This document shows positions 59,184 through 61,811 of a stretch of DNA of 64,000 nt, in pieces. Position 1 is the stretch's first letter. Each line of letters begins with the position of its first letter. The stretch lies in contig OZ244621.1 of the NCBI GenBank assembly GCA_965218425.1, positions 2,944,001-3,008,000 of the forward strand, in the 5' to 3' direction. A program made the translations under genes and the position numbers. The stretch comes from an uncultured Candidatus Binatia bacterium (lineage in GTDB: Bacteria > Desulfobacterota > Binatia > UBA9968 > CAXXLF01). The notes beneath the pieces are model-generated. The model saw only the letters and a program-made list of their open reading frames with translations. It searched no databases and was not told the origin of the DNA.

Positions 59184-59891
59184 GTGAGTCTAAAAGATAA
59201 GGTTGCTTTAATTACCGGAGGTGGACGTGGGATCGGAAAGGCGGTGGCTCTTGCCTACGCCCGCGAGGGGGCGAAGCTAGCGATTTGTGCCCGAACCGAG
59301 GCCGAGGTTGAACGATCCGCAGAGAAGATCCGGGCCCTTGGATCGGAGTGCATTGGACTTGTTTGTGATGTTTCAGTGGAAGATTCGGTGGAGAGGATGA
59401 TGAAAAACCTGGAGAATCGTTTTGGCAGGGTGGATGTTTTGGTTAACAATGCTGGGGTGATGACCCGACCTGTCTCTTTGGCGCAGCTAGAGGTGAGAAA
59501 ATGGGACTATACATTAGCGGTGAATCTGCGGGGGAACTTCCTGGTGACCCGTATGGTTCTGCCGCTCATGTTTCGGCAAAAGACGGGTTCCATTATCAAT
59601 GTCTCTTCGACCATTGGGCGGGGCGCCTATGCCAATTTCGCAGCCTATGCCGTCTCTAAGTGGGGGATCGAGGGTCTCACTCAGACCCTGGCGGCGGAGG
59701 TCAAGTCCCATGGGATCCGTGTGAACACGGTGGATCCAGGCTATGTCGCGACCAAACTCACTGGATACACGGGGAGCGCGCCAGAATCGGTTACAGAGGT
59801 TTTTGTCTTCCTGGCCAGTGACGAGTCCTGTGCATTGAGTGCAAGGATGTTGAGTTCGTCCAACTGGAAATCTCAGATCAAGCAAAAGTAG
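59184..59891 (+). CDS. Short-chain dehydrogenase/reductase
   Basis: TGGGRGIG, NNAG, NVSS, YAVSK. Confidence 0.92.
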   Translation: MSLKDKVALITGGGRGIGKAVALAYAREGAKLAICARTEAEVERSAEKIRALGSECIGLVCDVSVEDSVERMMKNLENRFGRVDVLVNNAGVMTRPVSLAQLEVRKWDYTLAVNLRGNFLVTRMVLPLMFRQKTGSIINVSSTIGRGAYANFAAYAVSKWGIEGLTQTLAAEVKSHGIRVNTVDPGYVATKLTGYTGSAPESVTEVFVFLASDESCALSARMLSSSNWKSQIKQK

Positions 59892-59896
59892 CGGAT

Positions 59897-60133
59897 TTAC
59901 GACAGGCCCAAAAGCTCCTCGATCCTGGCCTGATCAAAGCCGATAACGGCATCTCCGTCGATAAGGGTGACGGGTGTGCTCTGGTACCCCATGCCGAGCA
60001 GCTCCTTCAGCGCCTGCTGATCCTCACGAACGTTCTTGTCCACGAATTCGACGCCCTTTTGAGAAAGAAACTCCTTCTCTGTGTTACAGGGCCCTCACCC
60101 CGGTTGGCTAAATACGATCACTGATTTGGCCAT
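59897..60133 (-). CDS. Glutaredoxin/NrdH-redoxin-like selenoprotein (UGPC), 78 aa
   Basis: MAKSVIVFSQPG-U-GPC-NTEKEFLSQKGVEFVDKNV...STPVTLIDG..VIGFD; TGA (60095-60097) sits at the first Cys of CxxC; SD GGGGG; SECIS-like hairpin right after the UGA. Confidence 0.88.
60052..60094 (-). promoter_or_regulatory. Putative bacterial SECIS element
   Basis: After UGA: lower stem GCCCU/AGGGC, upper stem GAGAAGG/CUUUCUC, apical loop AGUUU starting 22 nt after the UGA. Confidence 0.7.
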
Positions 60134-60491
60134 GGCCGTTTCCCCCTTAATTATGATACCGGAGGCACTCTAGCCCCGATCCAATTAAATTGCCAGTCCA
60201 AAAGGAGGGCCTGACCCGCGGAACCTTAAGCCGGCCAAGTCCCTGAATGAGCCCCTCCGGGCCGTTGGGAGCCCGCCTGACTGGTCACATTTGCTGACTT
60301 CGCGCACAAAGTCGGTTTTCGAGTTATCCTCTGAGATTGGTTCGGCTCGGAGCTGGCAGATCGCCGGAAAACCGACAAATCTCCACGAAAATTCGGAATC
60401 TATTGTATCCCCTGACAGTGGCTTTGTGGTATCCTGATCTTTAAAGAGCAAAGGATTCTATTGTGCGATTGAGGCAAGGAGGGTAGGACCT

Positions 60492-61100
60492 ATGATGAGG
60501 CTTTATCATTTTCCAACTTCAACCAATTCCCGGAAGGTGCGGATTACCCTGATAGAGAAGGGGTTGGAATTCGAGCGGGTTAAAATTGATCTAACAAAGA
60601 AAGAGCATAAAAATCCTGATTATTTGAAAATACATCCTTTCGGCCAGGTGCCGGCATTGGATGACCACGGATTCATTGTTTATGATTCAACCATTATCAA
60701 TGAATACCTTGAGGACGAGTATCCACATCCACCTCTTATGCCAGAAGATTCCGACGGTAGGGCTCGGGCCCGCATGATGGAAGATTTTCGAGACAATCAT
60801 TTTAATCCCCCATTCTTGGAACTCATTCACGAGGTTGCTTATAAAACCGAGCAAGAAAGAGACGCAAGAGTGGTTGAGAGGTCCAAGGCGAAAATCATTG
60901 TTTGCTTTGATCGTATTGAGACGGAATTGGAAGGCCGGGAATATCTGGCCGGGACCTTTAGCCTCGCCGATATCGCTTTCATGCCCAACGTTGCTCTCAT
61001 AGAGCGCTTCGATATCCCCGTTGATCCTAAGTTGACCAATATGCTCGCCTGGATGGCGCGTCTTAAGTCCAGGTCGAGCTTTGCGAAATCTGCTACATAA
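60492..61100 (+). CDS. Glutathione S-transferase family protein
   Basis: STNSRKV, IHPFGQVPAL, DSTIINEYL, YLAG.FSLADI. Confidence 0.92.
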   Translation: MMRLYHFPTSTNSRKVRITLIEKGLEFERVKIDLTKKEHKNPDYLKIHPFGQVPALDDHGFIVYDSTIINEYLEDEYPHPPLMPEDSDGRARARMMEDFRDNHFNPPFLELIHEVAYKTEQERDARVVERSKAKIIVCFDRIETELEGREYLAGTFSLADIAFMPNVALIERFDIPVDPKLTNMLAWMARLKSRSSFAKSAT

Positions 61101-61115
61101 AGCAGTGAGATCAGG

Positions 61116-61811
61116 TTGAGCATCCTCACTGCCTGGCTGGTTCACTTCTATACTGCGCTTGGGGCCCTTCTAGCGTTGGTGGCCCTTTTCTTTGCTCGAG
61201 AGGCAAATTTCCAGGCGGTCTGTTGGCTCATGGCCCTTGCGGTCTTCATAGATGCCACAGACGGAACCTTGGCCCGCAGCTTCCGTGTGAAAGAGATCCT
61301 TCCCTGGTTTGATGGCGACCGCCTGGACGATATCGTAGACTATCTCAACTATGTTCTCGTGCCCTGTGTTTTTATGATGGAGGCCCGACTCCTTCCGGAG
61401 CGTGATTCCCTTTGGTTGGCAGGGCTTCCACTTCTTGCCAGTGCGTATGGATTTTGCCACAAAGAGGCTAAATCCGCAGATCACTTTTTTCTCGGCTTTC
61501 CTTCCTATTGGAACGTTGTGGCTTTCTACTTCTTTGTTCTTAGAACCCCACTTTGGGTCAATGGTTTTTTGGTTATCTTCTTTTCCGCTCTGGTTTTCGT
61601 CCCTATCAAGTATCTCTATCCAAGCCGTAGCCCCATCCTTCGCCGTCTTACAGTCACCCTAGGCGCCCTCTGGGGGATCCTGGTCCTGCTAATAATTTAC
61701 AGTCTTCCTGAGCCCTCCACGTTTCTAGTTTTCTGCTCCTTATACTTTCCCACCTATTATCTGCTGATGTCGTTTTGGCTGGAAATCGCAAGGCGCAGCT
61801 CCGCATTCTAG
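61116..61811 (+). CDS. Phosphatidylcholine synthase-like CDP-alcohol phosphatidyltransferase
   Basis: VHFYTALG, IDATDGTLAR, DG..LDDIVDYLNYV, ASAYGF, F.GFPSYWN. Confidence 0.8.
   Translation: MSILTAWLVHFYTALGALLALVALFFAREANFQAVCWLMALAVFIDATDGTLARSFRVKEILPWFDGDRLDDIVDYLNYVLVPCVFMMEARLLPERDSLWLAGLPLLASAYGFCHKEAKSADHFFLGFPSYWNVVAFYFFVLRTPLWVNGFLVIFFSALVFVPIKYLYPSRSPILRRLTVTLGALWGILVLLIIYSLPEPSTFLVFCSLYFPTYYLLMSFWLEIARRSSAF

Follow-up and report, generated by a model that had tools for sequence, protein, structure and literature searches.

Glutaredoxins with selenocysteine (Sec, U) in the first position of a UxxC active site are listed as an 'experimentally verified' selenoprotein family in Table 1 of a 2026 review (PMC13188914). 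Grx1 of Clostridium (Alkaliphilus) oremlandii OhILAs (cGrx1) is described as a native selenoprotein, of which the solved form carries Cys13 and Cys16 (PMC7642778). A U13C construct of cGrx1 is named in a second paper, according to which Grx1 resolves MsrA (PMC4479559), and both sources describe glutathione as its reductant. For BC3987 of Bacillus cereus a [ST]-x3-C-x2-C motif is given; Thr8, Gln9 and Thr53 are reported to stabilise its buried thiolate, and the protein has been placed near the Cp9-type thioredoxins, which shuttle between thioredoxin reductase (TrxR) and peroxiredoxin (PMC3720550). Here we describe a member of the known, experimentally verified Sec-glutaredoxin family, encoded in a 64,000-nucleotide stretch of DNA (the window) of an uncultured Candidatus Binatia bacterium.

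A first-pass annotation of the window had proposed that a redoxin of 78 residues was missing from the list of open reading frames owing to a TGA at codon 13, without stating a strand. Translation of the minus strand bore this out. When TGA is read as U, a frame of 78 codons is obtained (Table 1), the only internal TGA of which is codon 13, in the context S-Q-P-G-U-G-P-C, and the frame is not among the entries of the standard list of open reading frames (at least 50 aa). Starts in frame 3' of the TGA yield stubs of 48 or 31 residues only. Of the six frames, only this one looks coding: its hexamer score is 0.32, where called genes have a median of 0.38 and the other five frames score at most 0.13; the plus-strand frame of the same interval is not protein-like. 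A purine run, AAGGGGGAA, lies just 5' of the ATG, in agreement with the good Shine-Dalgarno sequence that had been claimed. Assembled contigs from three runs of three studies, one of which may be the source of this DNA, span the TGA codon without difference; a fourth, diverged contig shows differences nearby, with the TGA unchanged. As contigs from several studies agree at the codon, the TGA is not a sequencing error. The gene is intact, its apparent stop codon very likely standing for Sec.

Table 1. Features of the Sec-glutaredoxin locus, with positions in the window.
Feature	Position	Strand	Basis or occurrence
Sec-glutaredoxin-like gene, 78 aa, ATG (at 60133) to TAA (ending at 59897)	59897..60133	-	translation; Pfam Glutaredoxin match; 7c10 match; structure model
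In-frame TGA at codon 13 (60097-60095), opening the U-G-P-C site, presumed Sec	60095..60097	-	conserved; aligns with Cys13 of 7c10 (natively U13)
Codon 16 (TGT), resolving Cys16	60086..60088	-	invariant in alignment A2
Shine-Dalgarno-like purine run	60139..60147	-	sequence; similar runs also upstream of orthologues
bSECIS upper stem-loop, GAGAAGG (60079-60073), AGUUU (60072-60068), CUUUCUC (60067-60061), +16 to +34, GU at +24/+25	60061..60079	-	folding, codon conservation, covariation
Lower stem enclosing the upper stem, GCCCU (60092-60088) with AGGGC (60057-60053), +3 to +7 with +38 to +42	60053..60092	-	folding; 73.8% of cells paired, partly conserved
SDR oxidoreductase, convergent, not co-transcribed	59184..59891	+	nearby in 18/64 loci
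Glutathione S-transferase (GST), divergent	60492..61100	+	nearby in 10/64 loci

The protein, with Cys in place of U, matched the Pfam Glutaredoxin family (PF00462) with 42.9 bits against a gathering cut-off of 22.9, and its best match in the PDB was 7c10, a structure of cGrx1 (E 1.3e-19), with 40 of 77 residues identical (~52%). Position 13 (C or U), Cys16 and Pro54 are invariant in alignment A2 (25 rows). An AlphaFold model of the Cys form (pLDDT 93.5) has four strands and three helices, with a helix beginning at residue 14; as modelled, the protein would adopt a thioredoxin fold in which UxxC opens helix 1 and the conserved proline is present. Ser9, Gln10 and Thr53 are the equivalents of Thr8, Gln9 and Thr53 of BC3987. 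None of the NCBIfam models reached its cut-off. YruB (TIGR02196, 66.1 bits, cut-off 88.55) and NrdH (TIGR02194, 53.0 bits, cut-off 85.75) gave the best scores, and Uxx-star (NF041212) gave 40.8 bits, with a cut-off of 66. Accordingly, YruB-family membership was rejected on the score, NrdH proper on the score and on the lack of a class Ib ribonucleotide reductase large subunit in the genome, and Uxx-star on the score and on the lack of a C-terminal Sec. The earlier description 'glutaredoxin/NrdH-like' therefore stands for the fold and fails for NrdH, whereas its statement that UxxC glutaredoxin-like selenoproteins exist agrees with Table 1 of the review (PMC13188914).

Right after the TGA, a two-stem hairpin had been proposed as a bacterial SECIS element (bSECIS). 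Both stems and the AGUUU loop were found as described; the loop position of '+22' is right as the length of the spacer (22 nt) and wrong as its start, since the loop begins at +23 and its GU occupies +24/+25. The bSECIS model, as given in PMC13188914, calls for a loop of 3-9 nt, a stem of 4-16 bp, a G in loop positions 1-2, a distance of 16-37 nt from the UGA and an MFE of at most -7.5. With a 5-nt loop, 7 bp, a 22-nt spacer and -15.4 kcal/mol for the 45-nt region, the hairpin lies within all of these constraints. The 45-nt fold had a z-score of -2.67 and none of 200 shuffles was equally good; the z-score falls with the length folded, to -1.92 (53 nt), -1.37 (78 nt) and -0.41 (108 nt). In the MFE fold an extra A-U pair in the upper hairpin leaves a GUU loop, and this hairpin alone (8 bp) gave -7.0. 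Filters for start codon, length and a loose SECIS were passed by 4,378 of the 144,691 in-frame TGA junctions of the whole genome. Hence the hairpin alone is weak evidence, and conservation carries the case.

In a set of 34 distinct close sequences, the codon for Leu23 is CTT in 33, that for Ser24 TCT in 33 and that for Glu21 GAG in all 34, with other Leu codons free to vary in the same sequences. At least six of the seven pairs together with the GU at +24/+25 were retained in 36/36 close and 25/29 distant TGA forms (one of the latter a partial second match) and in 0/14 Cys forms. When the same peptide was randomly recoded with synonymous codons (20,000 draws), the full stem with GU arose in 0.4% and at least six pairs in 6%. 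When 64 TGA forms were aligned without gaps, 97.3% of cells of the upper stem were paired, all slid controls being lower, and five of the seven pairs showed changes on both sides; the shuffle control for this covariation ignores relatedness and is inflated, as kin are not independent. Selection on the upper stem at the RNA level is thus real: its synonymous sites are frozen, its pairs covary and none of the 14 Cys forms keeps it. Of the proposed two-stem element, then, the upper stem is conserved and the lower one only in part (Table 1). As a separate observation, most of the SECIS hairpin survives in a Cys-form homologue (TGT; L069:1483-1740, genome G114) and all of it in a TGG-form homologue (L163, genome G331), which likely reflects recent loss of Sec or, in the TGG case, an error.

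The genome that holds the window (G000; 4.46 Mb, one contig, 97% complete) encodes the complete Sec machinery, in keeping with the first-pass inference that the organism decodes Sec. In profile searches selA (592 bits), selB (413), selD (378) and tRNA-Sec (76.5) all scored above the curated cut-offs; they form one 11-kb cluster (G000:C1:1,300,977-1,311,984), in which selD itself carries one in-frame TGA. ARAGORN called the tRNA as SeC(tca). Within the order, a full-length orthologue with 64-99% identity and a single TGA was present in 57 of 61 genomes (G000 included). Of the other four, one has a fragment that bears the TGA and lies where a contig ends; in three fragmented drafts there was no close match. 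The TGA was codon 13 in 30/30 loci checked, and the stop codons of the orthologues vary. The selA gene was found in 58 of the 61 genomes; three TGA-bearing drafts in which it was not found (G005, G021 and G047; 210-440 contigs) probably have assembly gaps there. Outside the order (201 genomes of the class, 151 of the phylum) only distant homologues were seen, in both TGA and Cys forms; a search for selA in the 201 genomes of the class was positive for 151. Of the codon differences from the congener G001, 16 are synonymous and 4 non-synonymous; the gene is thus under purifying selection. Absence of Sec machinery from a complete genome and TGC or TGT in relatives had been named beforehand as findings that would speak against Sec; the machinery is present, close relatives keep the TGA and Cys homologues are more distant.

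Further copies of the Sec-glutaredoxin domain were observed within the data set. In L175 and L176 (genomes G027 and G009) it is fused to a C-terminal domain of ~175 aa. One genome holds five more paralogues, spread over two stretches of 10 kb in which redox and membrane genes abound (L173 and L174, on G059:C66 and C9), and in L172 (G005:C137) a paralogue lies upstream of genes for arsenate reductase and for an ACR3 arsenite exporter.

Two other readings of the TGA have to be weighed. A reassignment of UGA under code 4 or 25, to Trp or Gly, is implied by 14 database entries: in the best 120 of 361 database matches, position 13 was W in 13, G in one, R in one and C in four, two differed, none had U, and 99 were stubs of fewer than 70 residues without the active site. 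However, among the 2,000 called genes with the best scores 702 (35%) end in UGA, and the sole tRNA with a UCA anticodon in G000 is tRNA-Sec, which together exclude such recoding; the nucleophile would, moreover, be lost. We therefore give this reading practically no chance, and the W and G entries are best read as code switches made by gene callers. That UGA is a normal stop (702/2,000 genes), and that likely nonsense TGAs were met elsewhere in our scan for Sec genes, would also fit a pseudogene, in which the TGA arose by nonsense mutation or sequencing error. Yet the same TGA occurs in 57 of 61 genomes, purifying selection acts 3' of it, the SECIS is conserved and contigs of other studies agree, which makes a pseudogene exceedingly improbable. 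We hold with great confidence that the active-site UGA is read as Sec and that the protein uses a dithiol-type redox mechanism, the machinery, the Sec insertion and the chemistry of U13 and Cys16 being taken jointly.

The genes around the locus do not point to a partner. The commonest neighbour is a large opposite-strand open reading frame (21 of 64 loci); all of the commonest neighbours lie on the opposite strand and are patchy, and none was conserved across the order in the 64 loci (best 21/64). With no order-wide neighbour, the context names no substrate. A phosphatidylcholine-synthase-like gene (window 61116-61811, plus strand) accompanies the GST in 10/64 loci. In L071 (genome G186), a distant U-P-F-C homologue lies between a flavodiiron protein gene and genes for a TrxR-like protein and desulfoferrodoxin.

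The frame, the TGA, the hairpin and selA, selB, selC and selD in the genome are the observed starting point of the mechanism that we propose for this stand-alone glutaredoxin-like protein of 78 residues, which is predicted to reduce protein disulfides. By analogy with established SelB biology, SelB-GTP-Sec-tRNA would almost certainly bind the GU-loop hairpin (+16 to +34) and insert Sec at codon 13. As in cGrx1 and BC3987, the U13 selenolate would then very probably attack a disulfide or a sulfenic acid of the target, and Cys16, with Ser9, Gln10 and Thr53, would resolve the adduct to give a selenenyl-sulfide. Our best guess is a general antioxidant role of a housekeeping kind, in which the protein would supply, for instance, peroxiredoxins or Msr enzymes and not one dedicated neighbour; the many peroxiredoxin-like proteins of the genome are likely clients. 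Re-reduction might, on balance, be performed by the single predicted TrxB.

This reading has to be weighed against two others. On the TrxR side, trxB is present, BC3987 is matched both in the [ST]-x3-U-x2-C motif and in Thr53, and three distant homologues (L069, L070 and L071; 43-51% identity) are located directly before TrxR-like genes. The same selenoprotein may instead be a true glutathione-dependent glutaredoxin like cGrx1, possibly serving MsrA or the neighbouring GST, a reading that rivals the reductant step only. Its closest characterised relative, Grx1, is described as recycled by glutathione, gshB, Grx3 and Grx4 are present in the genome, the divergent neighbour is a GST (adjacent in 10/64 loci), and besides two Cys MsrA genes the genome holds an MsrA-like gene with TGA. 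However, the G-G motif, which has a role in glutathione binding and is present in Grx3 of this genome, is replaced here by G-F-D, and no glutathione reductase scored above cut-off with the one model used (best 264, TIGR01424 cut-off 606). The MsrA-like TGA gene, being present in only 2 of 61 genomes, cannot be an order-wide partner. We regard glutathione as a possible, although the less probable, reductant. An NrdH-type electron donor dedicated to ribonucleotide reductase would account for the weak TIGR02194 match (53 bits) and for the near-universal presence in the order, as expected of a core function, but the score is below the 85.75-bit cut-off, the recurring neighbour clusters of the 64 loci include no nrdHIEF context, the only PF02867 match, a class II NrdJ, is encoded far from the locus, and two strong-scoring thioredoxin-family genes could serve NrdJ. 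Such a donor is improbable, and the general reductase recycled by TrxB is the reading that we slightly prefer.

That other genes of this genome would be mis-called was likewise expected by the first-pass annotation, and our own genome scan, in which candidates were picked by eye from filtered lists of in-frame TGAs, yielded at least 27 candidate Sec genes in G000, including the Sec-glutaredoxin gene and selD. All 24 candidates that were read through (24/24) match a Pfam or NCBIfam family: GrdA, GrdB, PrdB-like, four OsmC-like/AhpD/CMD proteins, seven peroxiredoxin/redoxin/deiodinase-like proteins, two DsbA-like proteins, GST, DUF3179, DUF411, MsrA-like, a PRK06370 flavoprotein and MetE-like. 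Two candidates (1602771 and 4140079) look broken, and no Sec-type molybdopterin oxidoreductase was seen in G000. The MetE-like gene (PF01717; G000:C1:4424978-4426102, plus strand; loci L114-L129) has a conserved hairpin and carries its TGA at the cysteine of H-x-C, a zinc ligand in MetE; the TGA occurs in 15 of 148 matches, which are exactly the 15 closest, and in 0 of the 133 others. In the PRK06370 flavoprotein disulfide reductase (G000:C1:2282203-2283573, plus strand; loci L145-L157) the TGA replaces the second, active-site Cys of C-V-N-x-G-C; the TGA is present in 4 of 13 matches, which fall into two separate subgroups. Two identical DUF411 genes with U-G-C-C (G000:C1:3295250-3295723, minus strand, and 4453736-4454209, plus strand; one copy scanned) apparently lie within a duplicated stretch of ~11 kb. 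The MetE-like, PRK06370 and DUF411 families are absent from Table 1 of PMC13188914. Four TGA genes, for DUF3179, the flavoprotein, a GrdB-like protein (with U-G-T-S instead of UxxC) and GrdA, are clustered at G000:C1:2280110-2289587. The MsrA-like gene, related to VPGU type 2 (G000:C1:1984590-1985222, plus strand; L102/L178), is located ~6 kb from a Cys MsrA gene.

The gene itself is ordinary; what lifts it above routine is its conservation across the order and the large candidate selenoproteome of an oxygen-respiring lineage. With its relatives in the databases being mostly stubs or W/G forms, none with U in the best 120 of 361 matches, a near-universal gene of an uncultured order has been invisible, gene callers usually cutting it short. 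The 64 aligned SECIS sequences, whose proteins are as little as 38% identical, form a clean natural data set with pairs that covary, an invariant G-A-G-U core and, in addition, Cys revertants. The haem-copper oxidase subunit I of G000 is full-length (645 bits, just under the cut-off of 670.75), and matches were found in 18 of 21 genomes. According to the review, selenoproteins are seldom kept by aerobic bacteria, and the largest selenoproteomes reach 57 and 63 (PMC13188914); against this rarity stands a genome in which a haem-copper oxidase subunit I accompanies at least 27 candidate selenoproteins. The abstract of the Binatota paper describes every order as aerobic and methylotrophic, and the text of PMC8262859 holds no word beginning with 'selen'. 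Our literature search, which did not cover Deng et al. 2026, found no paper on Binatia selenoproteins. Tentatively, this Binatia order may be an unrecognised selenium-rich, oxygen-respiring lineage with a Sec-redoxin as a core gene, a candidate selenoproteome of at least 27 genes without a Sec formate dehydrogenase, and an antioxidant network run on selenium, although we would not call this probable. If so, the Sec-glutaredoxin would be the universal marker of the lineage and its hub reductant, contrary to the view that selenoproteins are rare in aerobes.

Compared with known systems, the UXX-star proteins (NF041212, NF041114 and NF041211), a label that we take to denote a second Sec near the C-terminus, share the glutaredoxin-like fold and the Sec and match weakly in HMM searches; unlike them, our protein remains below cut-off and ends with a TAA, with no Sec near its C-terminus. 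From NrdH-redoxins and from the YruB family, both below cut-off, it differs in having neither C-V-Q-C nor an nrdHIEF operon. With BC3987 (3zij/3zit; E 3.4e-11) it shares the [ST]-Q-P-x-C-x-P-C site, the Thr53 in S-T-P and a stand-alone gene, whereas BC3987 and the clostridial Cp9-type proteins use Cys instead of Sec and the Cp9 gene, unlike ours, sits between genes for TrxR and peroxiredoxin. It resembles the Sec-glutaredoxin family (PF00462, UxxC) in passing PF00462, in its single UxxC Sec and in a bSECIS right after the UGA, and differs in reaching no NCBIfam cut-off and in the absence of U from the best 120 database matches. The nearest system is cGrx1 (7c10/7c12/7c13). Its active site reads U-P-H-C, compared with U-G-P-C here and U-P-P-C in the translated loci of family f3; unlike cGrx1, our protein belongs to a host with a haem-copper oxidase subunit I and has no Sec-MsrA partner co-occurring across the order. 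In length class, fold, U13 and C16 the two proteins are alike, at ~52% identity, and both hold the K-E-F-L-S helix and the G-F-D motif.
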